Below are positions 28,065 to 63,412 of a stretch of 64,000 nucleotides of DNA, one piece after another. This DNA is from Bacillota bacterium (lineage in GTDB: Bacteria; Bacillota; Clostridia; Christensenellales; SZUA-584). The stretch covers positions 25,315-89,314 of the forward strand of contig JAEWCC010000007.1 in the NCBI GenBank assembly GCA_023390815.1, read 5' to 3'. Position 1 is the stretch's first letter; the number at the start of each line of letters is the position of its first letter. The notes beneath the pieces were generated by a model that was not told the origin of the DNA, searched no databases, and saw only the letters and a program-made list of their open reading frames with translations. The position numbers and the translations under genes are program-made.

Positions 28065-28072
28065 GTTATTAT

Positions 28073-30805: not shown

Positions 30806-30816
30806 TTTGAAACAAT

Positions 30817-31767: not shown

Positions 31768-31778
31768 AACTGTTCTCC

Positions 31779-33122: not shown

Positions 33123-33435
33123 TATTTATACTTATTAAGAACACGGGTAGTTAGGTTGGTAATATTTTAAAATATTTTATCATATTATATTACATATGGC
33201 AAATTATTATCAAATGTTGTTAATACTTGTGATGTTAACGTTGTTGTACAAAATGTTAAAGGTTGCCTGGCTACTGGACGGGAGTTTGTCTTATTTTGCG
33301 ACTGCTCCTCCACAATCTTATTCCACTGCAATTCTATGTCCGCTAAACAATCAACGCCCCGTCTTCTGCTGAAAACGGGGCGTTTGTCACTTGCCTGACG
33401 CCGCAATTCTGCGGTGTCTTTTGTATAAGTAAATC

Positions 33436-33852
33436 ATTCCCACTCGCAAATTCAAAACTTAATCCAAACAATTCTGTTTAGACTCCGTGATAAGTTTTTA
33501 CTCAATTTGATACCAGTTATTCACCTTCTACGGCGTTTGCTGATCAATTGTTATCAAAATGCTATCAAGGTTGTGTTATCAATCCACATTGCAACACTTG
33601 CATATGTGAATAAATTAAATCACTTTTTAACTCCTGTTATATATACTATCACGACGATTTCCTAATTTCAATCCGAAAAACTGTAGTATTATAAACAATT
33701 TAGACCTTAACAAATATGAGATATTTTATATACTGCATTTACTACACCTTGAAGTATTCCAAATTAGCGAATCTTTCTAATCTAAGTTAGGTCATAAATA
33801 TCCCTAAACCAAGCCTTTTTGCCCTCCTCCATACATATTTAAACTATAGGCA
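33436..33852. repeat. Repeat R2 long form, copy B
   Basis: See 20734..21168. Preceded by a strong hairpin GACGCCGCA/TGCGGTGTC (33397-33418) plus TTTTGT. Confidence 0.8.
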
Positions 33853-34002
33853 TATCTTGTGGGAACCAAAGTCGCATTAATGAATTATCAATACTCTTTG
33901 TTACTTTTAGTAAATATTTATGTTTTCTCACACGACGTGCGTCGAGGTTAGTCATCTGCTGAATATGTTTCCACACCAAGGGGACGTCGTACGTGTGGTT
34001 AT

Positions 34003-41906: not shown

Positions 41907-42824
41907 CTATAGCTCCGTGCCCAGCATCATATCGGCATGGGGAATCCACTCTCCGCATAAAGGCGCGTCTCGGTACACATCCATGTGGATCTGCGCCTTC
42001 GTCAGCTTTTTTCTGACCATAGAAGATTTACCGTTTATCTGATAAATTGCTTTAAGTAGTCCATACACCTCAGGTATCCCGCCCAAAGCGTTTCCTCTTT
42101 GCAAAAGTCCGAATTTCGTATATATGATCAGCTTGTCGACCAGGGCATCGTCCGCGTACCGCCCCCATTCGCGCACATTCAGCTTTAAAAGCCGCTTAAT
42201 TGCATCGCTGTCCCGTTTATGACAGACATATTTTACGAGCCATTCCGGGTCCAGAAGGTTCACCGCAAATTCGCGCGCGCAGCCTTTCGCTTGTGACGCA
42301 ATATGAAACAGCGTTTCCTGCGAGCGTATCCGCTTCATACCTTGTCTGCAGATTACCGGATCATCTGTAGATATGAACAATTCCCCAAGCTTGCCTTCCC
42401 GCTCCGCTCTGGTTATGGCGAGCTGCCTTCTGGCACACGCCCGCACATCGGCGGACATTGCACGGTCAGCCACATCCTGCAGCCACCCCTCATCGCCGAG
42501 CCTTCGCGCGGCGTTCAGGGAAATGGAGTCGTATGGATCCCGGTCGTAAATCATGACCCCTGCCTCGGCCACCGCAGCGATGTACTGCGCTTCGCGTATC
42601 CGCGCAGCGGCAGCCATGCGGCTTTTTGGACTAAGCTCTTCGCTGAGCACAAGCTGCAACAGCAGCTTATCTTTTTTAATCCGCGATATTGCGGCCTGCT
42701 CAACGAGCGGATGTACACATGTCAGCGCGGCCTGATATAACGTATCCTCGTCCGTCAACTGATCGACAGCCGTAAGCGCTTTCATCTCATCTTTACTCAT
42801 CCACCTTGGTTTAAACAGCCCCAT
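41907..42824 (-). CDS. MGLF / HEAT-like repeat / HxD-tail family protein (member 2)
   Basis: MGLFKPRWMSKDEMKALTAVDQLTDEDTLYQAAL. Tail IHMDVYRDAPLCGEWIPHADMMLGTEL. RBS GGAGGGAG. Confidence 0.8.
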   Translation of the reverse strand: MGLFKPRWMSKDEMKALTAVDQLTDEDTLYQAALTCVHPLVEQAAISRIKKDKLLLQLVLSEELSPKSRMAAAARIREAQYIAAVAEAGVMIYDRDPYDSISLNAARRLGDEGWLQDVADRAMSADVRACARRQLAITRAEREGKLGELFISTDDPVICRQGMKRIRSQETLFHIASQAKGCAREFAVNLLDPEWLVKYVCHKRDSDAIKRLLKLNVREWGRYADDALVDKLIIYTKFGLLQRGNALGGIPEVYGLLKAIYQINGKSSMVRKKLTKAQIHMDVYRDAPLCGEWIPHADMMLGTEL

Positions 42825-42842: not shown

Positions 42843-44051
42843 TCAATCACATGGGTTAAAGCCTTCATATTCGCGGAATTTTAGGCCGATGCCGGTGTCC
42901 GAATGGTAAGCCAGCTCATCGATGTGACCTCCGGTCCATTTGTATTCATCAACAGCAAGCGTGTCAAAAGTAACATGGCGTTCTTCGATCAGTCTGGATG
43001 CGTCGCGGCCTAAAACAGTCAATGCGAGCTTGTCGTGCTCAAATAAATCCATTAGCGCCTGCGCCGCCTTTTCCCGGATGTCGTAATCCGCATCTGACAG
43101 TTCGCCGTGAAGCCTGACCGCCTCCCTGTTGCATTCAGGCAGGCCTTCATAAGCGGCAATACGCACCCCTATGCTGCAATCATGAATGGCCGCATCACGC
43201 ATCCACTCCGTTTTATTGGGGAAATCTGAATTGACCAGTTTTTTTGCTGCCTCAGGACGCAGATACCAATCGGACGTGTTTTTGACTAAGTCCATCAGCA
43301 AATCAGGGTTGGATATTTGGTTTAACAAATTAATTCTATCATAAGTAATTTTTCCATAACGGAGCATCACATGCACAGCTTCCTCGTTGTGCCCGAGCCG
43401 TTTATAAAGATACTCCTTTTGGGAAAGCGTCAGTCTTTCGTCCTGTAGCTGCGTTTCTAGCAGTGCGATATCCGTGCAATTTTCCACTGCGGTAAACCAG
43501 TTCGTTTCCTGCGGATTCATCACATACCAGGCGATGATGCTTTGATTCTCCAGTTCAATTGCCGCATGCAATCTGTTCGAAGGCAAGGCATCCTCTCCGC
43601 AAACTGATTGCCGAAGCGCTTCATCATTCAGCCTCCGAAACGCCAGAACGCCCGCCTTTTTCCATTCGGCGGTTTTAGCCACCTGCGCTAGCAAAGTTTC
43701 ATCAGATAGCGTTTCCACCGCGGCAACGTAGAGATCCTTCTCGTTAATTGCCAAGCGGTACAGCAGAGACTGATTCATAGATTTTCTGATAGCTGCTTCC
43801 CGCGCCTTCGCGATATACGGGCCACCCGCAATGCTGTCGATGAATTCCGGGTCTGAAATAATCGTAACCGCGGCGCACTGGGTTGGAGGCCAGCCGGCTT
43901 TACAGGCGATCTCGCATAAGGCCTCCCGATCTCCTTTCAGCCGCTCTATTCCTATCTCCGCGAGCTTGTTGTCATGGGTTTTGGTTATCGTCTTTATGAG
44001 CCAGCGTCGGCTCTTAGTACGCCGCATCTTTCTGAGTTTACCAGATTCCAT
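42843..44051 (-). CDS. HEAT-like repeat / HxD-tail family protein, KLRKMRRTKSxRW N-terminal variant (member 3)
   Basis: Start moved to the ATG at 44051 (MESGKLRKMRRTKSRRW, RBS AAGGAGG), which removes the overlap with the upstream gene. Tail GGHIDELAYHSDTGIGLKFREYEGFNPCD. Confidence 0.75.
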   Translation of the reverse strand: MESGKLRKMRRTKSRRWLIKTITKTHDNKLAEIGIERLKGDREALCEIACKAGWPPTQCAAVTIISDPEFIDSIAGGPYIAKAREAAIRKSMNQSLLYRLAINEKDLYVAAVETLSDETLLAQVAKTAEWKKAGVLAFRRLNDEALRQSVCGEDALPSNRLHAAIELENQSIIAWYVMNPQETNWFTAVENCTDIALLETQLQDERLTLSQKEYLYKRLGHNEEAVHVMLRYGKITYDRINLLNQISNPDLLMDLVKNTSDWYLRPEAAKKLVNSDFPNKTEWMRDAAIHDCSIGVRIAAYEGLPECNREAVRLHGELSDADYDIREKAAQALMDLFEHDKLALTVLGRDASRLIEERHVTFDTLAVDEYKWTGGHIDELAYHSDTGIGLKFREYEGFNPCD

Positions 44052-44124
44052 TCGTGATTCCTCCTTGCTATGAATCAATGCTCGCCTCCAACCGTGATTC
44101 TTCACCTTTACTCGTGCCTTTTCG

Positions 44125-45390
44125 TCACGTGTCAAAGCCTTCATATTCGCGAAATTTAAGGCCAATTCCAGTATCCGTATGGAAACCCGGTTCGTCAGCA
44201 TAAGTTCCGTTCCACATCACTTCATCAAGGTACGGCGATTCAGACGATTCTCGGGGCATTTCTATTCGCTTTAACGCGGCGCGGCCTAAAACTGTCAAAG
44301 CGAACCGATCCTGCTCGAAAATATCCATCAATTGATGCGCTGCGCTCACCCGGTCTGTGTAAAGAGAAGAGTCCAGATCGTTGTATAGCCTGACTGCATC
44401 TTTGCTGTACTCCGGCAGATACGCATATGCGGCAATGCGCACGCAGATATCAATATCGTGCAAAGCGGTATTTCGCAGCCATTCCATTAGGTCAGGAAAC
44501 TCCGATTTTACCAGCCGACTCAGCGCTTCTTTTCTGATCGTTGTATCCGTGTTGGTTTTAAATACTTCCATCAGCGCTTTGTAATCGCCAAGTTCAGCAG
44601 CTGCCCCAAGCCTGTTCTCTGGCTTCGCGTCTTCGCCGCATACAGAGCGCCGCAGCGTCTCATCTGTCAGCTTGTTGAATGCCAGTACACCCGACTTTTC
44701 CCATTCTGCGTTCTTGGCTATCTCTACCAGCAGTGCTTCATTGGCCAGTGTTTCTACTGCTTTTTCCAGCCGATTCAGCGTTTCTTGCCGCGTCTGTATC
44801 TCCGGAGTATTTTTAAATACTTCCACCAGCGTCTCGTAATCTCCAAGCTCGGCGGCAGCCTGAAACCTGTTCTCCGACTTTGCATCCTTGCCGCATACGG
44901 AACGCCGCAACGTCTCATCTGCCAGCTTGTTAAATGCCAGCACACCCGCCCTTTCCCATTCGGCGGTCTTGGCTACCTCTGCAAGAAATTCTTGATCGGT
45001 CAGCGTTTCTACCGCGGCTCCATATAATCGCTTATCATATATAGCCAGCTCGCGCAGCAGCGGTTGATTGACCGATTTCCGGATTGCCGCTTCCCGCACC
45101 CGAGGTTTATACTCCTTAATAGGCAAACTGCCGCACACCCCCCGGCGAACAGAGTCTTTTATCTCTGCGATTGCGTCGATGAGTTCCGGGCTTTGTATAT
45201 ACTGTATTGCGGCAATTGATCCAGCCGCCCATCTAGCTTCGCGCATGATCTCGCCGAGCGCCGCCTGATCACCGCTCAGCCGCGCCGCACCCAACGCTGC
45301 CAGCTCGTCATCGTTTGTTCTGATTACCGTCTTCTTAATCCAGCGCATGCTCTTCGTGCGCCGCATCTTTCTTAATTTCCAAGGCTGCAT
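44125..45390 (-). CDS. HEAT-like repeat / HxD-tail family protein, KLRKMRRTKSxRW N-terminal variant (member 4)
   Basis: MQPWKLRKMRRTKSMRW. Internal ~70-aa duplication (AKTAEWERAGVLAFNKLADETLRRSVCGKDAK... / AKNAEWEKSGVLAFNKLTDETLRRSVCGEDAK...). Tail GFHTDTGIGLKFREYEGFDT. Confidence 0.75.
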   Translation of the reverse strand: MQPWKLRKMRRTKSMRWIKKTVIRTNDDELAALGAARLSGDQAALGEIMREARWAAGSIAAIQYIQSPELIDAIAEIKDSVRRGVCGSLPIKEYKPRVREAAIRKSVNQPLLRELAIYDKRLYGAAVETLTDQEFLAEVAKTAEWERAGVLAFNKLADETLRRSVCGKDAKSENRFQAAAELGDYETLVEVFKNTPEIQTRQETLNRLEKAVETLANEALLVEIAKNAEWEKSGVLAFNKLTDETLRRSVCGEDAKPENRLGAAAELGDYKALMEVFKTNTDTTIRKEALSRLVKSEFPDLMEWLRNTALHDIDICVRIAAYAYLPEYSKDAVRLYNDLDSSLYTDRVSAAHQLMDIFEQDRFALTVLGRAALKRIEMPRESSESPYLDEVMWNGTYADEPGFHTDTGIGLKFREYEGFDT

Positions 45391-45424: not shown

Positions 45425-47623
45425 TCATTCAAATTCGATGGTTTCCTCCACCATTACATCGCAGCTTTTTGATGCACAAGAAGAATTGAAATCATGATGC
45501 AGGGAAACATTTCTGCCGCCAATTCCCTCAAGCTTCTCCCGGTAATGTTCCGACCTTCCATATGCATAGCGCAGAAAGGCTAAAGTTTCTTTAAACTTTT
45601 CCAGCTCTGTTCTGTGCAAAAGGTAATCAATCTGCATCTGCATGAACTCTATACCACCGTACCGGATACACACGTCTTTCTCGTCTTCACCTGTAAGCCC
45701 CGCAATAATTGCCGCAAAGCGCAGCGCTGCCTCCTCATCACCCTTCCGCAGATTAAGCGCTGCAGCCGCCACGATCTCATCCCGTTTACCGGCAAAAGCA
45801 TCGCTGCACAACAGCTTTCTCGCAAGTATGATACTTACGCTGTTGCGGCTGACCATGTCAAGCAATACTTCCCACCTTTTAAGCCGCCACGCGGCCGCGG
45901 CGTGCAAACTTAATTTCTTATCATCAAGCGCTATTTTTTCAATGAAATCCTGATCCTCAATACGTTCGATCGCAGCAGCACTCACAAGAAATGACTCGTC
46001 ATCTTCGTCGGCGAGTACATACGTTTTTAAAAAGTCCTGATCCGTAATGCGTTTAATCGCCGCAACTCGCACGCTTATCGATTCGTCATGAAGCACGGCT
46101 TCCTTGAGAGCATCCCCGTCTGCCTGCTCTAATGCCGCGATACGCATGGCCTCCAGCTTTTTATATGCCACGTAGTACACATCGCCTGTAGGCTTGGCCT
46201 CTCGAATAATCTCCTTAAGCGCTGCTTCTTCTTCAACCCTCTCCGCAGCCGCTTTGGAAAAACGATTGCGGCCCACCGCAACTTTAAGTAAAATGCTTGT
46301 GTCAGATATATAGTTCAATGCTTCGACGCCGATATATGTATCCAGTCCATCCGCAAGGCCCATGGCCTGATAGATGATGTCCTGATTGTGTATTCTGCTG
46401 AGCGCTGCTTCTACAAGTTGCTTATCATCTTCCGACTGCCTGAACTGCGTACGCTCCCAAACTACCTGCCCCAGCCGTTCATCCACCGTTAAACGGCTGA
46501 CCGCAGCCAGTCGTATCGGCTGCTGGTAACGGTATCTGTCACATGCCAGCTCCGCAAGCAGCGGCTGGCTGGTCAGACGCAGTACTGTTTTCTCGTCCAA
46601 CTCCCTCATATGACGCCGCGCGTACAGGTTTAAGTCGGACGGATCTGTAATCAGCGATACCGCTTTCTGGCGTGCCTTATGATACCGGGATTTGATTGCC
46701 ACATCCAAAAGCTGTTCTTTCGAAAGCGAGGCCGAAGTTGTATTTGCTGGTTTTTTTTCGCTGCCTTTTTTCTCAGCCGTCGCAGGCCGAAGCGCTTTGC
46801 TCAGGAGGTCCTCTGAAACGTCGTCGGGATTCATGGTAATAAACTGAATGATGTCGGCCTGCACTATTAGCCTATCCGCCGCTTCCTGCCGGATGACGGA
46901 TGAGCCGTTATGCAGAGCTATTTCAAGTAGTGTTGACTGATCGGTGATACGTTCGAGCGCCATCTGTCTCGCTTTGATAGCTTTTGCAGTGCGGACCGCT
47001 TCAAGCACCGACTCTGGTGCTGTAAGCCGCTGCACCAGTACTCCCGCGGATTCGCTCAGAGTAATACCTATATCGTCAATGGTTTCCAGTGTCTTTAATA
47101 TCGTTGTATCCGAAAACCGCCATATAAGCGCGTCCATCTCCTGCGCGGTGCACGAGAATAACCCCACGCAATGCAAAAGTACCATCGACATATAATTATC
47201 GTCTTTAACGCAGCGCTTCAGATATTCATTCCTTTCCTTAGGCTCGAGGGCTTTCAGAAACTTTGCAAATAAGGCCGGATCCGCCGTCAGATCCATTGCG
47301 GCGTTAAGCAGCGCCGTCACACGAGGCTCCCCCAAAGATGCTTCGTATTCCAGGCGCTGCAATATAACTGGAAACTCCTGATGGTTATCCGCAATGCGCA
47401 AAAGCGCAGCAGCTGCAACATGCGCACTGATACGTGATTCGCCAAGCGCCAGCTGCTCAAGCAGCAGTTCGTCTTTGATACGCGAAACGGCAAAAAACGC
47501 CACCATCTCATCATGCGCGCCTTTCGCCGCGCGCAGCAGCGCGCCATCGGATTTCAGCAAAGACACTGCGGCTAACGCCTTCTTAGTATCCTTTTTATGC
47601 CACTCATTTGAAAACAATCCCAT
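45425..47623 (-). CDS. MGLF / HEAT-like repeat / HxD-tail family protein (member 5, 732 aa)
   Basis: Start moved to the ATG at 47623 (MGLFSNEWHKKDTKKALAAV, RBS GGGAGG). Tail VSLHHDFNSSCASKSCDVMVEETIEFE. Confidence 0.75.
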   Translation of the reverse strand: MGLFSNEWHKKDTKKALAAVSLLKSDGALLRAAKGAHDEMVAFFAVSRIKDELLLEQLALGESRISAHVAAAALLRIADNHQEFPVILQRLEYEASLGEPRVTALLNAAMDLTADPALFAKFLKALEPKERNEYLKRCVKDDNYMSMVLLHCVGLFSCTAQEMDALIWRFSDTTILKTLETIDDIGITLSESAGVLVQRLTAPESVLEAVRTAKAIKARQMALERITDQSTLLEIALHNGSSVIRQEAADRLIVQADIIQFITMNPDDVSEDLLSKALRPATAEKKGSEKKPANTTSASLSKEQLLDVAIKSRYHKARQKAVSLITDPSDLNLYARRHMRELDEKTVLRLTSQPLLAELACDRYRYQQPIRLAAVSRLTVDERLGQVVWERTQFRQSEDDKQLVEAALSRIHNQDIIYQAMGLADGLDTYIGVEALNYISDTSILLKVAVGRNRFSKAAAERVEEEAALKEIIREAKPTGDVYYVAYKKLEAMRIAALEQADGDALKEAVLHDESISVRVAAIKRITDQDFLKTYVLADEDDESFLVSAAAIERIEDQDFIEKIALDDKKLSLHAAAAWRLKRWEVLLDMVSRNSVSIILARKLLCSDAFAGKRDEIVAAAALNLRKGDEEAALRFAAIIAGLTGEDEKDVCIRYGGIEFMQMQIDYLLHRTELEKFKETLAFLRYAYGRSEHYREKLEGIGGRNVSLHHDFNSSCASKSCDVMVEETIEFE

Positions 47624-47868: not shown

Positions 47869-48981
47869 TCATACGGGCAAGTCAAAGTGCACCTTTGCTT
47901 TGTCTTCATGCGGAGAACAACGATCTTCTCTATAATCGTCATGCGCGTGATATATACGCCGGGGGATTACCAAAATCGCTTCACGCACAGCATCGTCCTT
48001 GGCTTCGCGGTACATTTCCATTAAGGCTTGCTGCGCAAAGGGCGCAGCGCGTCGACTTTTTTCCATTATACGCAGAAGCGCTTCCACCGATGCTTTGGTT
48101 CGGATATCTCTGAACCGGTCACAAACTTCCCGATATTGATGAAAATCTTTGCGATCAATCAGCCTCTCCAATGCCGGAACAACACGTGGATCGTCAAGTT
48201 CCATCAGATAATACGCATTATCGTTGCGCAGACACCCGCTTATTAAAGAGGCAAGCGGCTGTGAATAGTGTGAAGAATCACGCTTCATGAGTTCAACTGC
48301 CACAAGGCAGCGGACATACTTCAAGTTATCGGTGCGGAGCGCGAAGGACAGCAGCGAAGCATTGGATAATCGCGACATGGCCAATTCAGCAATTCTTGCT
48401 CGGCACTTCTCGTCCGCATCTTCCAAAATATTTTTTTCGAGCAGGGCTAAATCGTCAATCTTATCGAAAATGTCCTTATTCCAATAGGGGTCTCGACGAA
48501 AACAGAAATACAATGTGTTTGGATCGGCAGTAATTTTTGCCAGGTGTTGGGCGGTATTCCTGCAGACCTGGTGGTCCTTTTCAGTCATTATGAGTTTTTT
48601 CAGCAGTTCCACGTTCATTATTCTTTCCGAGGCATTCATTCTGGCGAAGAGACTTGTTGCTTCTGCCGCTATCTTGAACAGCATATTATCGTCGCTGATT
48701 TCCTCCATTGCTTTTCTCGCAAATTGACTCGCCTTATTACGATAAATTTTTGAATAATCGCATTTTATAATTGCCTCCGTTCGCACATAAACCGAGCTAT
48801 CCGTTGCGGCGATTTTCGCGATTACTTCCTGATCCGTCAGCTTTTTTACAGCAATGGCGCGCGTTGTTTCAAGCGGTGCTTTGAGCGCTGCTTCGGCTAT
48901 CTTTTTCTGGTCGTTCAGATTTCCAATGGCATTTTCAGCCCGAGGCCTGTCCTTGCTCATCCATGGTGTAAATAATCCCAT
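47869..48981 (-). CDS. MGLF / HEAT-like repeat / HxD-tail family protein (member 6)
   Basis: Start moved to the ATG at 48981 (MGLFTPWMSKDRPRAENAIGNLNDQKKIAEAAL, RBS AGGAGG). Tail IYHAHDDYREDRCSPHEDKAKVHFDLPV. Confidence 0.8.
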   Translation of the reverse strand: MGLFTPWMSKDRPRAENAIGNLNDQKKIAEAALKAPLETTRAIAVKKLTDQEVIAKIAATDSSVYVRTEAIIKCDYSKIYRNKASQFARKAMEEISDDNMLFKIAAEATSLFARMNASERIMNVELLKKLIMTEKDHQVCRNTAQHLAKITADPNTLYFCFRRDPYWNKDIFDKIDDLALLEKNILEDADEKCRARIAELAMSRLSNASLLSFALRTDNLKYVRCLVAVELMKRDSSHYSQPLASLISGCLRNDNAYYLMELDDPRVVPALERLIDRKDFHQYREVCDRFRDIRTKASVEALLRIMEKSRRAAPFAQQALMEMYREAKDDAVREAILVIPRRIYHAHDDYREDRCSPHEDKAKVHFDLPV

Positions 48982-49080: not shown

Positions 49081-50439
49081 TTACATAGACAGGTCGAAGT
49101 GCACCGCTGAATCATCAATGTGGTTACAATTATTGTTACCTTTGTCCTTGTCGGAATGCTCATGATAAACGCGCTGAGGTATTTTCAATATGGTTTCTCG
49201 TGCCGCATCATCCTTAGTCTCGCGGTATATTTTAATCAGGGTTTCCCGTGCGAAAGTCCCGCCCTCATGATTCTTTTGCATAATACGCATCAGCGCTTCT
49301 ATTGATGCTTTTGTTTGGATTCTGCCGAGCTCTTCACAACAATTACGTTTGAGAATATGGTCTTTCTCACTTTTACAAGCCATCGCCTCCAAAGCCGGAA
49401 TAAGACGGAAGTTATCGATCACCTTAAGTTCCGCCAGATCGAGCACTCGTTGGCTGTGCAGACATTCGTTTATTAATGTGGCAAGCGGCTGTGAATAGCG
49501 TGAAGCCTCGCGCTTCATGAGTTCAACTGCCACATCACAACGTTTATTCTTTTCGTTATCCGTACGCAGAGCATAAGAGAGCAGCGCGGCATCGGACAAC
49601 CGCTCCATTGCCCAACCTATAATCCCACTTCGGCATTTCTTGTTTGAGTCTTCCAAAAGTTTTTTTTCGAGAAAAGCTATATCATCAATCTTATCGATAA
49701 GGTGCTTAGAGCAATATGGATCTTGACTAAAACAGAAATACAATGTATTTGGGTCGTTCGCCTTTTTTGCAAGGCGAGTTAGTACGTTATAATAGACTTT
49801 CGTGTTTCCTTTTTGGGACATTACCAGTTCCTTCAATCGTTCTTCCCCATCTGAAAACTGCATAATCTTATCCAGTATCCAGTAGTCGTCTTTATTATTT
49901 TCGGCGGCAATCTTCAGAAGCAGTCCCTCGTTTTCAATCTTTTTCACGGCAGTTTCACGTGCCCTAAATTCATACGCTGATTTTGCTATCTCTGCCAGTG
50001 TATTTTCATCGCTGATTTGCTCAACAGCTTTGCACGACCGTTTCCCAATATAGTTTTCGCATGCAAGCTGCTTAAGTAGTTCCTTGTTCTTAATTTTTTC
50101 TATGGCGGCTATTGCTGTATCGTCGCAACGTGTCTCTTTTGCTATCTGGGCTAGTATATTTTCATCACAAGCTCGTTCAACTAATTTGCGCCCCGCTTCT
50201 TTATCAAAGTTTTCATATCGTCTTAGTGCCGTCTCGCGCATATAGTACGATCTATCCGCTATAACGATTGTAGCGATTACTTCCTGATCCGTCAGCTTTT
50301 TTACAGCGATGGCGCGCGTTGTTTCAAGCGGTGCCTTGAGCGCTGCTTCAGCAATCTTTTTCTGATCAGTCAGATTCTTAACGGCCTTTAGCGCCTTCGC
50401 TGCGTCTTTGCTCATCCATGCAGGTGCAAATAGTCCCAT
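49081..50439 (-). CDS. MGLF / HEAT-like repeat / HxD-tail family protein (member 7)
   Basis: MGLFAPAWMSKDAAKALKAVKNLTDQKKIAEAAL. Tail VYHEHSDKDKGNNNCNHIDDSAVHFDLSM. RBS AAGGAGA. Confidence 0.8.
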   Translation of the reverse strand: MGLFAPAWMSKDAAKALKAVKNLTDQKKIAEAALKAPLETTRAIAVKKLTDQEVIATIVIADRSYYMRETALRRYENFDKEAGRKLVERACDENILAQIAKETRCDDTAIAAIEKIKNKELLKQLACENYIGKRSCKAVEQISDENTLAEIAKSAYEFRARETAVKKIENEGLLLKIAAENNKDDYWILDKIMQFSDGEERLKELVMSQKGNTKVYYNVLTRLAKKANDPNTLYFCFSQDPYCSKHLIDKIDDIAFLEKKLLEDSNKKCRSGIIGWAMERLSDAALLSYALRTDNEKNKRCDVAVELMKREASRYSQPLATLINECLHSQRVLDLAELKVIDNFRLIPALEAMACKSEKDHILKRNCCEELGRIQTKASIEALMRIMQKNHEGGTFARETLIKIYRETKDDAARETILKIPQRVYHEHSDKDKGNNNCNHIDDSAVHFDLSM

Positions 50440-56415: not shown

Positions 56416-57675
56416 TCATAGTGGCTCAATAAGCCCGTCCTTGTCCACATAATCACTATGACCGGCACAATTGCTGCTGATGGGTCCGTCGTTGTGGACA
56501 TCGCGAAACCTCTTTTTCTGGCGGTCGGCGTGCTGTGCGAACAGCTCCGGCAGCTCTGCATCGGAATAGAGCCAGCGCAACTGTACGGAGGCGTGCCAAT
56601 TTCCCTCCGATACCATTTCCTCTAGTAATTCAATCAGCGCGAAAGAGCACCGCTTCTCAAAGAGCTTGCGAATATTTATACCATCGCCGATGTGCTGCCG
56701 CACGAAACGCACGGCTTCATCCTCGCTGCCGCACATGGCAAGCCGTTGCATAATGATATCGCTGTGCTGCGGATATTCCGCCTCGCGTTTCCGCCACCAG
56801 CAAGTCGGCGCGTATTCTACTGGTATCCATGTGGCAATATGTTCACGTTTCAGACTGTCTTTTGGTAAATTTTCAAACAGCGCCATAAGCTCATTGGCCT
56901 TCATTTTTTTCATCGCGGCGGTTTCGACATCTACTACTGTCGTTTTGATAAATACGTCTTGTGCGTCGCTAGGATCAATACGATTGGCGGCTCCGCCACT
57001 TACATAGCTATCCATAAGGGCAATCTGTTTTAGAAGAGTTGGGTTTTTGATACGCTCATCCTCGATGCACTTGATCCACAGCTTTTGCATGCTCTTCTCG
57101 TCAGCGAATGAGAGGATCAATCTGCATAGCATATTCTCATCCGTTATCTGTTCGCCGCAGAGAGCACGCAGCTTCCCGTTTTCCGAAGCATCCATCGCAA
57201 TTTGCGCAAACAGCCTTTGGTCAGCCTCGCCCCAGTCGGATTGTTTAAGCTCCCCCAGGCGCTCCATCGTGGCACAACGCACATCTGCAGAAAGCGCGCT
57301 ATTCGCCACAATATGGGTAAGTACTCGGACGTCGCTCAGGTGTCTCACAGCTGCGCGTTTCCCGGAGTCGCTGGGGTGCTGTCGGACAAGCGCATACAGC
57401 AAGCTTGGGTCGGTCAGCCGTTTCAATACGATCCAGCCGAAGGCTTCCAATGGCGGTTCTTGCGTCAGTGCCATAAAGAACTGTGCAAGAAATTGCTGGT
57501 CATTAATACGTTCAATGCAAAGCTGACGCAAATGAACCTGATCGTCGGGGGACAGCCCGGAATGGGCCAAATCCGAAAGCAGTATTTCAATCAGCTTCTT
57601 CTCGTCGCGTATTCTGCCGATGGCCTTTTTTTGCTTACCCCAATTTGTCGTCATATAAGGCCTAATAATACCCAA
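56416..57675 (-). CDS. MGLF-like / HEAT-like repeat / HxD-tail family protein (member 8, divergent)
   Basis: TTG start with RBS AAGGAGGA: (M)GIIRPYMTTNWGKQKKAIGRIRDEKKLIEILL. Tail RDVHNDGPISSNCAGHSDYVDKDGLIEPL. Begins 17 nt after the rSAM stop. Confidence 0.7.
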   Translation of the reverse strand: MGIIRPYMTTNWGKQKKAIGRIRDEKKLIEILLSDLAHSGLSPDDQVHLRQLCIERINDQQFLAQFFMALTQEPPLEAFGWIVLKRLTDPSLLYALVRQHPSDSGKRAAVRHLSDVRVLTHIVANSALSADVRCATMERLGELKQSDWGEADQRLFAQIAMDASENGKLRALCGEQITDENMLCRLILSFADEKSMQKLWIKCIEDERIKNPTLLKQIALMDSYVSGGAANRIDPSDAQDVFIKTTVVDVETAAMKKMKANELMALFENLPKDSLKREHIATWIPVEYAPTCWWRKREAEYPQHSDIIMQRLAMCGSEDEAVRFVRQHIGDGINIRKLFEKRCSFALIELLEEMVSEGNWHASVQLRWLYSDAELPELFAQHADRQKKRFRDVHNDGPISSNCAGHSDYVDKDGLIEPL

Positions 57676-57692: not shown

Positions 57693-59897
57693 TTAATTGA
57701 GCATACCCGCCAGATGCTCAAACGCAGCTTTCCGAGCCGTACAGTCAAAATCACCGTTGTCGATGTTCTGTTTGTCTCTTGACCATGCCTTACACATACC
57801 GCCGCAGAGGTATCGAACTTCGCATTCTCTGCATTTTTCATTTATGTCCACATCGTGCCGGGTTAGTTCACGGAAAGTTACGCCCTCTACAACATCCTCG
57901 AGCCTGTCTTTAAGCAGGTTGCCCAGCCTCTTATCCGCACCGCACCACGCATAGCACGGATAAGCGCCGCCGTCCGGCTCCACGTAAAGGTTCTGCCCAA
58001 GGCCGCAGGAGAAGCGCGGCCTGAAAGGCCGTTTTTTCTCATTCTCGTCTATGCAGAGAAAATCCGAGTCCTTCGGTGCGCTTTCTGCTCGGCCTAACGG
58101 TAGAATTGGTCTGAATCGCACATTTTCGATCCCAAGACGTTCGCACAATTCATCAATCGATTTCCCTTCTTTTCCTTCGCGCTGCGTTTTCGTCAGCGTC
58201 GCGCAGACGCCTACCCTGCGGACAAAGCCCAATTCCTTAATTCGTTCAAGGTTATCTATCGTCCGTGCGTAACGCCCTGCGCCGCGTTGCGCATCGTGGC
58301 TCGCTTCGTCGCCGTCTACGCTGACCACAATTTCAGGAAAGGCCTCGCATACAGCTTTCAGGCGCTCATCGGAAATCAGAAAGCCAAGCGACGTGCGCAG
58401 TATCAGCCGCATACCTTTCAGCAAAATACGCCTGATTCCCGCTAGCATTGCGTCGATTTCGGTATGCACTAGTGGCTCTCCGCCCGTCACCACCACCGCG
58501 CGAAAAAACGACTTCTGCGCGTCTTTGATAATATTAAGTATCGCGTTTGCAGGCATCTCGCTCATTTCACTCTCGCCGCCCAGCGCATAGCAATGTCCGC
58601 AGCGCAGCGGGCAATCGAACGTGACGTGCAGATACAGCTTGTTGAGTTCATTGACTCGGTTTTTCTTGTAACGCTCAAGTGCAGTACTCGCACCATACGG
58701 ATAACGGCCCCACTTGGATGCCTGTCTCATACGCTGTTCGTTGATTTCCAGATCGTAGGGATGCGGCTGGTCGCCTGCCATTTGTAGCAGCGGAGCATTC
58801 TCAGGAGTTATGCGTTTCGTCATAATGTAACCCATCTCAAGTGCCATATCGCGCGATATCTCATCGAATACCGCGCGATACGCCTCGCAGTAAGGATCCT
58901 TGTTTGTATTCGATGCGAACATGTTGTAAAGGCATCCGCCGCTGCAATACGGGAAGTGTACGCACGTCCCGCATTCCGCATGCGCGCCTTCCTGCTTTTC
59001 CAGTAATTTGCGATACGCTGCGCTTTCAATAATCTGTGCTTCCGTCAGGTCGTCCATCACGTTCCCCAGCACAAATTCAGCATGACCGCAGAAGCGCTGG
59101 CATGAATATACGCTGCCATCTGGCGCGATCGCCGCGAAACGACCGAGGCACGGGAAAAAAGTGCACGTATGTCCCTCTCCGTCAAAGCAGCCTTTCGCCA
59201 TGGAGTCCAGCGTCGATACCCTTGTCTGCCGCATATTGTTTTTATACGCTGCCAGAGTGTCCAGCATAATTTTGGTCATGTCCGCTACGGCCACAGTATA
59301 CGCGTCAGTTTCGCGGCCAAGTGCGCGTACCGCGCCGTGTAAAGCATATGGAATACCACTGCGCAAACTGCCTGCGTAATGCCGGAATACGCGCTCCGCC
59401 TCTCCCGCGGATTCGTGAGTAAATGTGCAGATGCGGCTGGCCTCCACGCCATATTGCAGCAGCACCGACCGCCCGCGCTCGTTGGCGGCGTAGTACCCTT
59501 TTCCACGTTGTACATCACACATCGCCTCATCGCCGTCTATGCTCGTGCCCACTGCTATTTGGTAACCTCGGATGAGCTGTGCCATATGCTCATCCATCGC
59601 GATAAGGTTGCTCTGCATGGAAAGGCGCAGCCTACGCCCGAAGCGTTGCTGCAGCTTTGGTAATATGTATTCGTAAAACTCCGGTCCGGCCAGCAGCGGT
59701 TCGCCGCCGTGAAATGTGACGCGTACGTTTCCCTCTTCAGGCGCGATCCGTTCCATAAAATCAAGAGCTTTATCTGCCACCTCACGCGTCATGGTTTCGC
59801 CCCGGTTGGGGCCGAAGCAATAGGTACACGAGGCCTGGCAGGCCGCTGTGGGCACGAGCATGAAGTTGGAGGGGCAAAAAGCGGATGTATGTTCCAT
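57693..59897 (-). CDS. Fused double radical-SAM / SPASM-domain enzyme (two complete maturase-like units)
   Basis: Start moved to the ATG at 59897 (MEHTSAFCPSN, RBS AAAGGAGAC). Unit 1: CQASCTYC plus SPASM Cys array (CTFFPC, YSCQRFCGH, CGTCVHFPYCSGGCLYN, YCEAY). Unit 2: CPLRCGHC plus SPASM Cys array (SCGLGQ, YPCYAWCG, CRECEVRYLCGGMCKAW, DC). Confidence 0.85.
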   Translation of the reverse strand: MEHTSAFCPSNFMLVPTAACQASCTYCFGPNRGETMTREVADKALDFMERIAPEEGNVRVTFHGGEPLLAGPEFYEYILPKLQQRFGRRLRLSMQSNLIAMDEHMAQLIRGYQIAVGTSIDGDEAMCDVQRGKGYYAANERGRSVLLQYGVEASRICTFTHESAGEAERVFRHYAGSLRSGIPYALHGAVRALGRETDAYTVAVADMTKIMLDTLAAYKNNMRQTRVSTLDSMAKGCFDGEGHTCTFFPCLGRFAAIAPDGSVYSCQRFCGHAEFVLGNVMDDLTEAQIIESAAYRKLLEKQEGAHAECGTCVHFPYCSGGCLYNMFASNTNKDPYCEAYRAVFDEISRDMALEMGYIMTKRITPENAPLLQMAGDQPHPYDLEINEQRMRQASKWGRYPYGASTALERYKKNRVNELNKLYLHVTFDCPLRCGHCYALGGESEMSEMPANAILNIIKDAQKSFFRAVVVTGGEPLVHTEIDAMLAGIRRILLKGMRLILRTSLGFLISDERLKAVCEAFPEIVVSVDGDEASHDAQRGAGRYARTIDNLERIKELGFVRRVGVCATLTKTQREGKEGKSIDELCERLGIENVRFRPILPLGRAESAPKDSDFLCIDENEKKRPFRPRFSCGLGQNLYVEPDGGAYPCYAWCGADKRLGNLLKDRLEDVVEGVTFRELTRHDVDINEKCRECEVRYLCGGMCKAWSRDKQNIDNGDFDCTARKAAFEHLAGMLN

Positions 59898-59907
59898 TTT
59901 GTCTCCT

Positions 59908-60736
59908 TTATTCAATCGTAAAAAACTCGGGCGGTATCATACTGTCGGAATGTCCGAAATCCACATGGTCGCCAAGGTCCTGATAGTGGGACTCCGAATC
60001 GTTATGCTCTTCTTCACGAATCACGTGTCCGTTCAGCCGCGTAATATGTTCCTGAAACCTCCCGCTCCGGTATATATGTTGCAGTAAAGTGCATGCGTCA
60101 ACGGATTTGCGTTCAAAGCAGTGATCGGTCAGCTACTGGAACGCGGCTTCGTCTATCTCTGTGATCCAATCCGCTTCCCCATGAGCGCTTTCCTGAACAA
60201 GTCGGCAGCCCACATACCTTGAGAGTGTTTGCTCTTCCTCCAGAAAACCGGCAAGCAGCCCCGGAGACGAAAGTTTTTGTATAGCGGCTCGCCGTACCTC
60301 AGCGTCCCTATCCTCCCGGCATATGCGAAGCAGCAAATCCGCACCTTTCCGGACAGTATGGCCTGAATACATCCCTGTTTTGCTGCGCGATCTGCGCGAG
60401 AGCCACCGGATCGTTGATCCTGTCCATCGCTGTTCACCGCACGATGGACTCCCCGGCCTGTGCAATCGGCACCAGCAGTTTGTTCGGGACTTGCAGCCGC
60501 TTCATCATCCCGGTCAGCGCCATGGATACGCTTCTGGACAGCGTTCCCACCGCCAGGCCGAGCTTCAGCAACATATCCTCGTCCACAATATGGCCTATCG
60601 TCTCGGCCTTTGCGGTATCGCAGGTCAGCTCGTCAGGAGCAATCAGCTTAAGCCTTCTGGCTTTTCATTCGCGATATGCCCTCAGTGCTTTGTCGGGATT
60701 ATCTCTATTTTCCCAAACGGGTCTGAACAGTCTATG
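59908..60736 (-). pseudogene. Decayed member of the MGLF / HEAT-like / HxD-tail family
   Basis: Own translation: degenerate start (CAT AGA CTG TTC = xRLFRPVWENRDNPDKALRAYRE), in-frame TGA at 60665-60667, second TGA near 60435, frameshift near 60375, in-frame TAG at 60133-60135, then a family tail ...LLQHIYRSGRFQEHITRLNGHVIREEEHNDSESHYQDLGDHVDFGHSDSMIPPEFFTIE*. Confidence 0.7.
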
Positions 60737-60739: not shown

Positions 60740-63412
60740 CTACATCTCATTCGTCAGATTGAAATATGTATACCCCTCGTCCATGTGGCACCATTCGTCC
60801 CGGTATGCTTTGCCTTGCACGTCCACATGGGATATGGCTTTTTGTTCGAGCCCTTCTATGGCTCCGGAAAAACGACCCGCTGCGTAGACCCGCTTCAGCG
60901 CCGTCGCCACGGGTCGGTAGTCGAATTGCTCGTCCTTTTCGTTTTCCGCAATGATGGAGATCATCTTCACGACCGCTACGTCATTCAGCCGCCATGCCCA
61001 ACGCTTGTCAAGTTCGTCCAAACGCGAACAGATTTCAGGCGTACAATAGCGCGGGATATCAGAAATCACGGTCTCAAAAAGCGCCTTCGCGTCGGTAACG
61101 CGCCGCAACGCCTCTTTCCGTACGTTCAGCGCCTTCGCCTCCCGGGCGATTATCAGCAGCTTATCCGGATCGGTGATTCGCTTCATATCCATATCCGCTT
61201 TTTCAAGGTTCAATGCTATGTCCATCAGCGTATCCTCGTCAGCAATGCGCCGGACGGCTTCCTCCCTCATCAGCAGCGGCATATACGTATCAAGCGCAAG
61301 CTTTTTTAACTCTTCCGGGCTGGTGATCGCATCGAGTGCTGCCATCTGTTCCCTAAGCTCCTTTTCGTAATATGGGATGCGGTCTTCCGCATTCGTTTCC
61401 GGCACTACCGCGGGGACATGTTCTTCAGGTTTCGGCAACAAGTCAAAGTAGATGTAATCCCCGTCCTGATGGCACCATTTATCGCGATATTCCTTTCCGG
61501 TATAGTCGAAGTGCGCCACGGCTTTTCCATGCAATCCCTCAATGGCCGCTTTTGCACGTCCCTGCCGGTATATGCTTTTTAGCGCAGCCGCATAATGTCG
61601 GTAGTCGAACTGCTCATCCTTTTTGTTGTTCGCGATAACGCAGGTGAGCGTTTTAACCGCCGCGTCGTCAAGCTGCTGCGCCCAATCCGCATCCAACTCG
61701 CTCAGGCGCTCGCAGATCTCGGGCTTAAAGCTATTTTGCACATTGGCGCTTACTAATTTAAAAAGCGCTTTCGCGTCATGAATACGCTTTAGCGCCTGTT
61801 TGCGTATCCGCAGGTCTTTTGCGTCGTTGGCGACAAGCAGTAACATATCCGGGTTTTTAATCGTGTGCAGGTTGAAATCCTGTTCCTCCGGCATCTCGAT
61901 CTTCAGCGCAACGTCGAGCAGCGTATATTCGTCCGTGATTCGACGGGCTGCCGCCGCGCGTATTCTCGGCGCAACATCGCCGTCCAGTGCGATTTCCTTT
62001 AATGCCAACTGGCTTGTGACCGCCTGCAGATCCTGCAGCGCGTCGTTTACGTCCCTATTGTTTTGACGTCTGAATATCACCGGATCGATATCCGGCTTTA
62101 TATCGTCAAGTTCCAGATAGGTAAAGCCTCCGTCCTCGTGGCAGCCCTTATCACGGTTTACCTTCCCGCTGGAATCGCTGTGAGATACGGCAGTCCCTTT
62201 AAGCGCGGCGATATGCTGCACCGCATGTCCTTTCCCGTACATGCGCCTCAGCGCGGCTGCAATATGAGTATAATCGAACCGCTGGTCCGCCGTATTCTCC
62301 GCCAGTATCCCTGCCAAACCCTCCACGGTACGGTTACCGGCTTTTTGTACCCAGTCTTTATCGATTTCGTCGAGTCGCTCGAAAAATTTTCGGTCTCTGT
62401 AGCGCTTTGGGTTGTTGTCAAACAGCGAAAGCATCGTATCCAGTCTGCCAATGCGCAGCAGTGCGTTCTCGCTGATCTCGCTGTCCTTAGCGCCATGGTG
62501 GACGCGCAGTAGCGCCTCGTCCCCCGACACATATTTCAGTGCATCCGAACACAGAAAACTCGTTTGGTATTCGGATGGAAACCGTTCCGGGCCGTCGTGC
62601 ATGGCGATGCGCTCAAATACCCCAAAATCCCGGATGCGGCTTTTGGCCTGAACACGCGCCTCCTCCGGCCCGCTCAGCGCCATCAACGCCAGCTGCCGAT
62701 CGTCTTCGAGGTCTTCCGGGCTTACCAGCTTTGTACATTCACGCAGTATGTATTCATTCAACGTTTGGTCCATGATTACCAGTGCAAGTGCCGGGTCACC
62801 CGCTTTCTTCACTGCACCGGTGCAAATGTGTGCCTTCTGCGCAGTGTGTGCCAGCTTGACCGCACGGCCGGTATCCGTCATATTGGCTATTGCAGCCAGA
62901 CGGATATCTTCGTCATCCGCCGAGTCGAACGCTTCATTCAGGTATTGCGGATCATTGACCCTCTCCAGCGCGATCATGCGTACTCCTTGATCCAGGTCTT
63001 TCGCAGCCAGCCACTTGAGTGTCGCCTGATCTGCCAGATGCGCCGCTGCCTTGCGGCGCAGCCCGTACCCCCCCGCGTACCGAGCTACGGCGGCCAAACA
63101 GCTTTGCAACTTCGCGTCACTTTCGATCGCCCGCTTATCCATCTTTTCAAGGCCGTCCCACACGCGGCAAAGCGGCTCCACTGCCCTGAGGCGTTTGATC
63201 GCTGCTTCGCGCGGGACGCTTAATTTTGGCGTGTTTATCACATCTAGAATTAGCTGGCAGTCCCAAATCCGTTTTACCGCTTCCTCGCGAATATAATGAT
63301 TGGATGCATTCAATGCCGCGTCGCGAAGTGTTGCTTCCTTTTGAACTTTGTTCAGCGCCGCCAATGCATTTTTAAAGTTCTCCGACATCCATCCCGGCTT
63401 GAAAAGGCCCAT
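60740..63412 (-). CDS. MGLF / HEAT-like repeat family protein with three tandem tail-bearing modules (member 9, 890 aa)
   Basis: Start moved to the ATG at 63412 (MGLFKPGWMSENFKNALAALNKV, RBS AAGGAGG). Three copies of ...H.D..GK.(Y/N)RD..CH.D....Y..L: VSHSDSSGKVNRDKGCHEDGGFTYLEL, VAHFDYTGKEYRDKWCHQDGDYIYFDL, ISHVDVQGKAYRDEWCHMDEGYTYFNL. Confidence 0.8.
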   Translation of the reverse strand: MGLFKPGWMSENFKNALAALNKVQKEATLRDAALNASNHYIREEAVKRIWDCQLILDVINTPKLSVPREAAIKRLRAVEPLCRVWDGLEKMDKRAIESDAKLQSCLAAVARYAGGYGLRRKAAAHLADQATLKWLAAKDLDQGVRMIALERVNDPQYLNEAFDSADDEDIRLAAIANMTDTGRAVKLAHTAQKAHICTGAVKKAGDPALALVIMDQTLNEYILRECTKLVSPEDLEDDRQLALMALSGPEEARVQAKSRIRDFGVFERIAMHDGPERFPSEYQTSFLCSDALKYVSGDEALLRVHHGAKDSEISENALLRIGRLDTMLSLFDNNPKRYRDRKFFERLDEIDKDWVQKAGNRTVEGLAGILAENTADQRFDYTHIAAALRRMYGKGHAVQHIAALKGTAVSHSDSSGKVNRDKGCHEDGGFTYLELDDIKPDIDPVIFRRQNNRDVNDALQDLQAVTSQLALKEIALDGDVAPRIRAAAARRITDEYTLLDVALKIEMPEEQDFNLHTIKNPDMLLLVANDAKDLRIRKQALKRIHDAKALFKLVSANVQNSFKPEICERLSELDADWAQQLDDAAVKTLTCVIANNKKDEQFDYRHYAAALKSIYRQGRAKAAIEGLHGKAVAHFDYTGKEYRDKWCHQDGDYIYFDLLPKPEEHVPAVVPETNAEDRIPYYEKELREQMAALDAITSPEELKKLALDTYMPLLMREEAVRRIADEDTLMDIALNLEKADMDMKRITDPDKLLIIAREAKALNVRKEALRRVTDAKALFETVISDIPRYCTPEICSRLDELDKRWAWRLNDVAVVKMISIIAENEKDEQFDYRPVATALKRVYAAGRFSGAIEGLEQKAISHVDVQGKAYRDEWCHMDEGYTYFNLTNEM

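Follow-up and report, generated by a model that had tools for sequence, protein, structure and literature searches.

The window analysed here is a 64,000-nt stretch of the Bacillota bacterium contig JAEWCC010000007.1 (GCA_023390815.1, positions 25,315-89,314). In it, a gene for a fused enzyme with two radical S-adenosylmethionine (AdoMet) units, each with a SPASM domain, lies among genes for repeat proteins that are mostly of the HEAT type (Table 1). The longest open reading frame (ORF) at this place, 57693..59915 on the minus strand, starts from a TTG and encodes 740 amino acids (aa). However, the junction sequence contains an ATG at 59897 with AGGAG ahead of it, so this ATG, and not the upstream TTG, is the true start of an enzyme of 734 aa. 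Two CxxxCxxC motifs for the AdoMet cluster are present, CQASCTYC at residues 20-27 (nt 59817-59840) and CPLRCGHC at residues 429-436 (nt 58590-58613). Pfam returned two Radical_SAM (PF04055) and two SPASM (PF13186) domains, the NCBIfam SPASM model TIGR04085 also matched twice, and the SPASM core CX2CX5CX3C was found in each half (residues 309-322 and 689-702). Both halves thus have the features of the radical SAM superfamily and of its SPASM subgroup. An earlier sequence-only reading of this DNA had described two AdoMet clusters and two SPASM regions in one 734-aa ORF, and the ORF, the Pfam matches and the motif coordinates bear this out; its position for the first motif (near residue 20) was also right, while the second, put near residue 440, lies at about 430.

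In an alignment of 16 sequences across phyla, down to 37% identity, the second AdoMet motif and both SPASM Cys sets were invariant, and the first AdoMet motif was nearly so, because one of the aligned sequences is truncated at its N-terminus. Since each half has its own AdoMet cluster and a full SPASM Cys set, the enzyme may hold up to six [4Fe-4S] clusters. The AlphaFold2 model (pLDDT, the predicted local distance difference test, 87.7; pTM, the predicted template modelling score, 0.87) shows two barrel-plus-SPASM modules with a helical linker at about residues 337-414 between them, made up of helices 337-359, 380-398 and 405-414. Outside Bacillota, the aligned linker is about 40-60 aa longer.

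The TAA stop of the enzyme is followed by 17 nt with AAGGAGG and then by the TTG start of the next partner gene, whose orthologue in locus L003 has the same position. On the other side, a pseudogene ends 10 nt before the ATG of the enzyme. Both junctions contain Shine-Dalgarno sequences, which indicates operon coupling. The decay of the pseudogene was read from tblastn comparison with the intact orthologues in loci L005 and L003; its last 145 aa are 83% identical to the L005 orthologue, compared with 66% for the N-terminal part. These spacings had been given correctly in the sequence-only reading, which had also regarded 59898-60135 as the tail of the decayed member and found no separate short precursor there. 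We came to the same result, and the 38-aa ORF at 59908-60024 is that tail itself; it is the one notable small ORF, and the ORF list of the window contains no classical short precursor. Altogether, the window contains ten intact or near-intact tail-bearing genes and one pseudogene.

Table 1. Coordinates of the double enzyme, its parts and the tail-bearing genes in the window.
Feature	Position	Strand	Details
Double radical-SAM/SPASM enzyme	57693..59897	-	734 aa plus stop; ORF, Pfam, NCBIfam, AlphaFold2
N-half unit, residues 1-345	58863..59897	-	TIGR04083/anSME-like; SPASM core CGTCVHFPYCSGGC at 58932-58973
Helical linker, residues 346-415	58653..58862	-	conserved PLLxMAGDxPHPxD; alignment and model
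C-half unit, residues 416-734	57696..58652	-	thioether-synthase-like; SPASM core CRECEVRYLCGGMC at 57792-57833
Partner, 419 aa, 17 nt downstream of enzyme	56416..57675	-	N-terminus MGIIRPYM..W; tail (56419-56538) ...HADRQKKRFRDVHNDGPISSNCAGHSDYVDKDGLIEPL
Decayed partner (pseudogene)	59908..60735	-	one frameshift, three in-frame stops; intact tail ...HNDSESHYQDLGDHVDFGHSDSMIPPEFFTIE, then stop
38-aa GTG ORF, the pseudogene's intact tail alone	59908..60024	-	MIREEEHNDSESHYQDLGDHVDFGHSDSMIPPEFFTIE
Partner, 890 aa from MGLFKPGWM	60740..63412	-	three tandem C-terminal modules: ...CHED.., ...CHQD.., ...CHMDEGYTYFNL
C-terminal module only, 163 aa	63499..63990	-	tail ...HSDHHGKEYRSASCHNDEGYTYFTLD; aligns to residues 309-471 of a 474-aa L005 protein
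Partner, 452 aa, MGLFAPAWM...	49081..50439	-	tail ...YHEHSDKDKGNNNCNHIDDSAVHFDLSM
Partner, 370 aa, MGLFTPWM...	47869..48981	-	tail ...YHAHDDYREDRCSPHEDKAKVHFDLPV
Partner, 732 aa, MGLFSNEWH...	45425..47623	-	second tail subtype ...HHDFNSSCASKSCDVMVEETIEFE
Partner-like protein	44125..45390	-	tail ...FHTDTGIGLKFREYEGFDT; cross-phylum H[ST]D.GIG form, one HxD only
Partner-like protein	42843..44201	-	tail ...GGHIDELAYHSDTGIGLKFREYEGFNPCD; cross-phylum form
Partner, 305 aa, MGLFKPRWM...	41907..42824	-	tail ...HMDVYRDAPLCGEWIPHADMMLGTEL
Partner, 414 aa, MGLFKPKWM...	38536..39780	-	tail ...HHHDQIYNNKHEDNYAHFDFPD; no tail Cys

The two halves share 24% identity, which excludes a recent duplication, and their sequences place them in different radical-SAM/SPASM lineages. 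The view of one enzyme with two maturase units therefore holds, but the units are not alike. Searched separately against NCBIfam, a check that the earlier reading had proposed, the N-half matched TIGR04083 best (276 bits, cutoff 300) and the C-half the sactipeptide maturase StsB (94 bits, cutoff 625), so that no curated family was reached by the C-half. The whole protein scored 341 bits on TIGR04083, and the cutoff was passed only by adding stretches of the C-half. Moreover, TIGR04083 describes single units of about 376 aa, and the 734-aa protein has a second, unrelated unit. We found that single-unit bacterial relatives of the N-half were numerous and scored 372-417 bits on this model, isolated N-halves of double-enzyme relatives 334-350 bits, and an archaeal member 708 bits; these sequence scores assign the N-half to a bacterial branch of TIGR04083. 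Its second-best model was TIGR03942 for the anaerobic sulfatase-maturating enzyme anSME (141 bits; whole protein 196; cutoff 349). The N-half aligned end to end with the anSME structures 4K36-39 (E 1.6e-26) and more weakly with CteB and ChlB, and its top Foldseek neighbours were anSME (template modelling score about 0.8) and then ChlB (0.77). For the C-half, the closest solved structures were the thioether-forming CteB and SkfB. Among 1.84 billion cluster representatives, 109 matched the C-half at E<=1e-30; 59 of these matched in the second half of a protein of 600 aa or more, and the rest were fragments or stand-alone or split proteins of about 360-490 aa.

PapB was among the top NCBIfam matches of both halves, with 123 bits (N-half) and 78 bits (C-half) on NF047865 against a cutoff of 340. 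The models of other peptide-modifying enzymes were likewise not reached: the HxsB model TIGR03978 gave 137 bits for the whole protein, 80 for the N-half and 62 for the C-half (cutoff 370), and the QhpD model TIGR03906 gave 122 bits for the whole protein and 86 for the N-half (cutoff 453). The cyclophane models AmcB (92 vs 425), GrrM/OscB (80 vs 310) and XyeB (59 vs 450) were below their cutoffs, and the other triceptide models (YhhB, FxsB) were also far under theirs. Because no curated peptide-modifying model (Hxs, QhpD, PapB, triceptide) was reached, the enzyme may work in an analogous way to these systems without being a member of their families.

A word-indexed search returned 786 matches, of which more than 100 were full-length at 690-825 aa, down to 36% identity. 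At least 573 genomes in a scan with one genome per species encode a relative. They belong to about 13 phyla, and relatives were found in Bacillota, Chloroflexota, Acidobacteriota, Planctomycetota, Bacteroidota, Desulfobacterota, Pseudomonadota, Actinomycetota, Armatimonadota, Hydrogenedentota, Nitrospirota, Verrucomicrobiota, KSB1 and one Thorarchaeote; methanogens have single-unit versions. The fused ORF also occurs in isolate genomes (Lamprocystis purpurea, Parabacteroides sp. PF5-9, Lachnospiraceae C6A11 and Anaerolinea), and several homologues bear the NCBI name 'TIGR04083 family peptide-modifying radical SAM enzyme'. Given this spread and this naming, the fusion is an old and widespread architecture that already has a placeholder name, and it is no peculiarity of the window locus. 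Plasmid and phage searches found no copies of the enzyme. In the searchable literature we found nothing on TIGR04083, on radical SAM plus SPASM plus HEAT, on His-Xaa-Asp repeats or on tandem radical-SAM/SPASM proteins, and the double enzyme and its partners appear to be undescribed, with no paper or curated model for them.

To characterise the gene neighbourhood, ORFs were called in 79 loci and clustered all-against-all. The sole conserved neighbour family besides the enzyme was cluster 1, with 90 proteins in 49 of the 79 loci; its first example starts MGLFKPWMSKN, which identifies it as the MGLF/HEAT family. Partners were on the strand of the enzyme in 66 of 69 cases, upstream or downstream equally, usually 0-25 nt off, with one to four per locus. 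They are unannotated everywhere, and NCBIfam and Pfam gave no curated family for them, only generic HEAT/PBS-lyase matches (CpcE/NblB models) below cutoff. No signal peptides were found in them, and their bodies differ widely in size (200-1180 aa). Minor recurring neighbours, an ABC ATPase, a histidine kinase and a giant WD40 protein, occurred in at most 11 loci and were judged incidental. In L013, a 2142-aa multi-WD40 protein is encoded directly downstream of the enzyme-partner pair (8921-15349, plus strand), with related giants in five loci.

The conserved feature of the partners was found at the C-terminus. At least two His-x-Asp (HxD) motifs were present in the last 50 aa of 62 of the 90 partners, compared with 10 of 1000 other ORFs (Fisher p = 5.6e-68), and HxD density was 22-fold higher in the tail than in the body. 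Nine of these ten other ORFs also adjoin the enzyme, in loci first scored as partnerless, and their bodies have no match to HEAT or any other Pfam family. Since the same tail occurs on non-HEAT bodies, the tail, and not the HEAT body or the MGLF head, is the conserved element. The link between the enzyme and the MGLF/HEAT proteins, proposed earlier as its targets, therefore stands, but their defining feature is a C-terminal tail of one Cys and several HxD motifs that had gone unnoticed. The MGLF head was rejected as the defining feature, being present in only 37 of 71 partners. In the window, it also occurs as MGFFDILKK... on an RCC1-repeat protein (55646-56290, minus strand) and as MGLFNHFSYKD... 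on a 340-aa protein without HxD tail (51341-52363, minus strand), so that the head is a separate feature. The RCC1-like repeats go on in another frame at 55294-55752, which suggests a frameshifted gene.

When the tails were shuffled with their composition preserved, HxD was observed 178 times against 31.9 +/- 5.1 expected (z = 28.6). HD, HxxD, HxxxD, DxH, HxE, HxN and HxS were at or below expectation (HxS 13 vs 23.8), which means that the motif is specific in both spacing and orientation. Exactly one Cys was found in 57 of 71 tails, and C-x(0-6)-H-x-D in 59 of 71. The Cys typically comes after Ser-Asp, 2-6 residues before the Asp of the next HxD, while the distance in C-Xn-D is variable (n = 2-9); the loop often contains Ser and Cys (S-S-D-C, G-S-H-E-D), and the last HxD lies at a median of 12 residues from the C-terminus. 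The tail closes a module of about 75 residues, W.vR..AA..LV..Y.SG....IL..R..I, followed by HxD, loop and HxD.GIGVDFP.

Outside Bacillota, the tail ends in H[ST]D.GIGVDFP. In the lineage of the window, the end is C.H.D..Y.YF.L or HFDLPV, with the exception of 42843-44201 and 44125-45390, which have H[ST]DTGIGLKF, the cross-phylum form. The tail subtype of 45425-47623 also occurs in L003, L006, L008, L052, L054 and L063. The modules of 60740-63412 are about 220 aa long and each closes with H.D...C-H-x-D..Y.YF.L (CHED, CHQD, CHMD); two of the three sites that may be targeted thus lie inside the protein and not at its C-terminus. In Planctomycetota, Armatimonadota, Hydrogenedentota and some Pseudomonadota, the tail is extended past GIG.DFP by a Pro-rich stretch with an invariant ...[DN]-F-COOH end, for example GIGVDFPNPPAGRDF (L011, L012, L019, L030, L041, L064, L080 and many of L090-L169). 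Some partners (L030, L064, L135) have an additional zinc-ribbon-like CPxC...CPxC, which precedes a second I.IP..PP...DF.

The subfamily alignment has its invariant positions at both ends of the protein (M1, P6, W8, M9; H440, D442), and G2, L3, F4, H428, H447, F448 and D449 are nearly invariant. The model of 49081-50439 is a confident alpha-solenoid at residues 13-418, followed by two short strands that flank a loop at 427-444 with pLDDT<50. This loop holds the Cys and the invariant HxD, and, judged from the model, it is an exposed, flexible segment of the kind that an enzyme could thread into its active site.

The co-occurrence was examined in both directions. Among the 51 well-flanked bacterial loci, with 1.5 kb or more to either side, a tail gene adjoins the enzyme on the same strand in 36, and several more have one within a few kb. 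Together with the 49 of 79 loci given above, this answers positively the co-occurrence check that the sequence-only reading had named. In the reverse direction, metagenome contigs were searched, independently of the enzyme, with a degenerate DNA pattern for HxDxGIG[VLIMF]DFP. This gave 80 loci, of which 10 were chance; 76 matches in 70 loci were genuine C-terminal tails, with the stop 1-18 residues on. For 15 of the 18 tail genes so found with at least 1.5 kb beyond both ends, the enzyme was in the locus. The cultured Lamprocystis purpurea has an 810-aa enzyme (L080, 6001-8433), a gap of 4 nt and a 970-aa PBS-lyase-type HEAT protein (8438-11350) that ends in NSSDCVSTHEDKGIGIDFPDNPIGESVLPTDF, also given as NSSDCVSTHEDKGIGIDFP...DF. 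These results also bear on whether the two genes are neighbours merely by chance, or whether the fusion arose from faulty assembly or annotation, as the split or fragmented versions at L051, L056, L063, L065 and L087 might suggest. Since more than 100 independent clusters, and isolate genomes as well, have the enzyme as a single ORF, and the co-occurrence holds in both directions across phyla, we consider this explanation effectively refuted.

The single-unit relatives of the N-half provide information about the two halves. They are paired with tails in L079, L082, L083, L085, L088 and thirteen metagenome loci, and the tails beside them keep at least two HxD but have no loop Cys, for example HRDEYPYGSHEDAGIGVDFPE. 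In L082, the single-unit enzyme is encoded at 5001-6191 and its partner with the Cys-less tail at 6210-7499. Counting only Cys between the first and the last HxD, which excludes the helix Cys (ILACR) of L079-type tails, we found a Cys in 76 of 92 unique tails by double enzymes and in 0 of 16 by single-unit enzymes (p = 1.2e-10). The pairing of N-half-only systems with Cys-less HxD tails suggests a division of labour, in which the N-half may act on HxD and the C-half on the tail Cys. P0221/L087 had been a candidate single-unit enzyme, but it is a fragmented double enzyme and its partners do carry Cys. The complementary case, a genuine C-half-only system, was not found among the loci; L062, L064 and L068 had looked like this, but they are truncated double enzymes or fragments at contig edges. 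Two single-unit TIGR04083-type enzymes have no HxD tail nearby: that of L084 lies beside a glycyl-radical enzyme and its activase, and that of L086 beside corrinoid-protein, DUF1638 and URO-D-type methyltransferase genes. These contexts hint at other substrate classes within TIGR04083.

One explanation of these pairings is that one or both units have anSME-type chemistry, converting tail Cys or Ser to formylglycine or causing another oxidation or epimerisation with no crosslink. The end-to-end anSME alignment of the N-half, its best structural neighbour, the rank of TIGR03942 as second-best model and the frequency of Ser and Cys in the loop are consistent with it. However, the scores on TIGR03942 (141-196 bits) are far from the cutoff of 349, and the cyclophane synthase ChlB is about as close in structure as anSME. 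The sulfatase motif is C/S-x-P/A-x-R, whereas the conserved target here is H-x-D, and the N-half-only systems have no tail Cys. This chemistry is thus improbable.

The tail proteins could also be accessory subunits, acting as a scaffold or as a metal or Fe-S donor via His, Asp and Cys ligands, with the true substrate elsewhere. With His enriched 4.8-fold and with Asp and Cys as well, the tails have the typical composition of tails that bind metal, and HxsD and PqqD show that radical SAM maturases can need small partner proteins. In addition, some loci have no adjacent tail gene, and the archaeal TIGR04083 genes lack any linked partner. Nevertheless, His and Asp are not simply abundant in the tails but stand in a strict spacing and order, H-x-D, and where the C-half is lost, the tail Cys is lost too, which is the pattern that an enzyme and the residue it acts on should show. 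The partners are also many and diverse, with up to four per enzyme elsewhere, at least ten in the window and some non-HEAT bodies, which fits many substrates better than a stoichiometric subunit. We regard an accessory role as unlikely.

It was also considered that the HEAT body is a giant leader, and that the modified tail is cleaved off as a ribosomally made peptide with post-translational modifications (RiPP). Radical-SAM/SPASM enzymes are mostly RiPP maturases, the region in question is at the extreme C-terminus like a core peptide, and the decayed partner retains an intact tail ORF of 38 codons. Against this, no protease, exporter or immunity gene was conserved in the 79 loci, the partners have no signal peptides, the body, modelled with confidence as a folded solenoid, is conserved within subfamilies, and the 890-aa protein has three copies of the module, not just a terminal one. 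A short precursor gene, which the sequence-only reading had taken as evidence against a maturase of the repeat family, was not conserved in any of these loci either. PADLOC returned no defence-system match, only generic viperin (radical SAM) and HEAT matches. Taking the lack of a conserved protease or exporter, of defence matches and of plasmid or phage copies together, the end product is probably the intracellular protein in its modified form rather than a peptide set free from it, and we give the RiPP explanation a low probability.

We therefore favour, with moderate confidence, a two-gene protein-maturation module, in which the fused enzyme modifies the tails of full-length proteins encoded next to it; the earlier interpretation as a maturase of the repeat family is supported. 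The substrates would be mostly HEAT-type alpha-solenoids with an MGLF.P.W head, and the enzyme would act on their exposed C-terminal tail. In the putative target, a first His-x-Asp is followed by a flexible loop that usually has a single Cys (often S-D-C), with the Asp of the next His-x-Asp 2-6 residues further on, and then by a short hydrophobic strand, which is GIGVDFP or, in the lineage of the window, Y.YF.L. The N-half, which is TIGR04083/anSME/ChlB-like, would work on the His-x-Asp and the C-half, which is CteB/SkfB/StsB-like, on the Cys. Speculatively, and by analogy, H-atom abstraction at the Asp beta-carbon might give a three-residue His-to-Asp cyclophane of the triceptide type, and the Cys sulfur might be joined to carbon in a thioether of the QhpD/PapB type; each crosslink would cost 2 Da. 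An intracellular protein might in this way receive a rigid, cross-linked knot that possibly binds metal. That the two-headed enzyme installs both crosslinks on HEAT and other carriers, which would be the first substrate class of TIGR04083, is only a tentative proposal.

Several points weigh against a tail-modifying enzyme, or limit how it may be understood. The pairing of enzyme and substrate draws only on gene neighbourhood and motif conservation, and a tail rich in His, Asp and Cys could bind metal unmodified. In about 30% of the well-flanked loci, among them those of both Anaerolinea genomes, no tail gene adjoins the enzyme. In the latter (L014, A. thermolimosa; L059, A. thermophila), there is no tail gene nearby in 10 kb of flank on each side of the double enzyme, so that the partner, if any, is encoded elsewhere in the genome. 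In close orthologues, the tail was no better conserved than the body (71% vs 69%, p = 0.44); it is conserved as a motif, not residue by residue. Pfam found no RiPP recognition element (RRE), PqqD-like or other recognition domain in the enzyme, and the N-half begins at the cluster motif. Because the 16 single-unit tails can be grouped into about four types, the Fisher p-value of the Cys comparison overstates independence. Cys-less tails also occur beside some double enzymes (L120, L125/L025, L151, L066, the L003/L005 type and 38536-39780 in the window), and the link of the C-half to Cys is thus not absolute. Finally, PapB was reported to be strict for Cys-X3-Asp (PMC8172795), and the spacing here ranges from X2 to X9.

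Compared with known systems, the His-Xaa-Ser system (HXS; HxsA/B/C/D) is the closest analogue at the system level. HxsB and HxsC mature the protein HxsA, and the modification was mapped to the HxS motif (PMC13128918). Both systems have two radical-SAM/SPASM units and a linked protein, not a short peptide, with repeated triplets of His-x-small/acidic type. In the present system, however, the units are fused, there is no HxsD, the repeat is His-x-Asp, and the motif is at the C-terminus of cytoplasmic HEAT-type proteins with neither peptidoglycan-binding domain nor signal peptide; PADLOC gave no antiphage sign. The comparison with HxsB and HxsC made in the sequence-only reading is therefore apt as an analogy, but membership is not supported, as the TIGR03978 cutoff was missed and HxS is not enriched.

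QhpD forms thioethers between Cys sulfur and the methylene carbon of Asp or Glu within a ribosomal protein (PMC8172795). The tails resemble its substrate QhpC, the quinohemoprotein amine dehydrogenase gamma subunit, in pairing a Cys with a downstream Asp, but there is no QhpC-like substrate or qhp operon, and the thioether proposed here is putative. PapB and the ranthipeptides (freyrasin) have Cys-X3-Asp cross-linked from S to Cbeta (PMC8172795); here, there is no short precursor, each tail has one Cys rather than six, and C-Xn-D is variable. Triceptide synthases are RRE-less and anSME-like and join an aromatic residue to the Cbeta of the +2 residue. HaaB, YhhB and HtkB make His-C2-to-Cbeta crosslinks on H-x-x motifs (HAA, HNR, HTK), and YDR is modified also (PMC11499958). 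The strict i/i+2 spacing of H-x-D would fit this Omega1-X2-X3 rule, and ChlB is the second-best structural neighbour, although the substrates here would be proteins and not peptides; His paired with Asp as the X3 acceptor is not documented in the triceptide literature examined.

anSME is the best match of the N-half in sequence and structure, acts on whole proteins and has no RRE. It differs in that the partners here are not sulfatases, the target motif is another and the TIGR03942 cutoff was missed. The archaeal TIGR04083 members (Methanosarcina/Methanocella type, a hypothetical equivalog) are single units of about 380 aa, and their context has no conserved neighbour and no linked HxD-tail gene; none was found in seven archaeal single-unit loci. 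No function or substrate of TIGR04083 is described in the searchable literature. Classical RiPP maturases differ from the enzyme here, which has no adjacent short precursor and no RRE/PqqD-like domain. FbiC, a fusion of CofG and CofH, serves F420 cofactor synthesis and has no SPASM domains and no protein substrate. It is an earlier case of two radical-SAM units that share a single polypeptide (PMC11917521).

Elsewhere in the window, microcompartment genes occur at 567-5618 (minus strand): a tandem-BMC shell protein, an RnfC/Nuo51-like flavoprotein, an aldehyde dehydrogenase and the phosphate propanoyltransferase PduL. Giant secreted or surface proteins are encoded at 13156-19920 (minus strand, 2254 aa), 22065-28064 (plus strand, 1999 aa) and 34078-38385 (minus strand, 1435 aa), the last with PEGA, Big_2, Flg_new and fn3 domains. 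A low-GC island at about 28000-34000 (0.33-0.44 vs about 0.5 elsewhere) contains a Mob_Pre plasmid-recombination/relaxase gene (28663-29856) and an AAA ATPase gene (31782-33122), and the island probably represents a mobile element that has integrated.

New chemistry for the cross-linking of peptides comes mainly from radical-SAM/SPASM enzymes. To our knowledge, almost all characterised members act on short precursor peptides and few on whole proteins (anSME, QhpD, HxsB/C). The present analysis defines, from sequence alone, a compact and testable candidate enzyme-substrate pair that occurs in hundreds of species of about 13 phyla, and it links the function-less TIGR04083 to a candidate substrate class. 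The candidate target motif is precise, one Cys plus strictly spaced His-x-Asp triplets, and the analysis predicts which half would act on which residue; Lamprocystis purpurea offers a cultured source of the enzyme-partner pair. If the chemistry is confirmed, it would be a new protein modification, and it would explain a large unannotated family of 'hypothetical' HEAT proteins that is expanded in gut Bacillota, with at least ten copies in the window.

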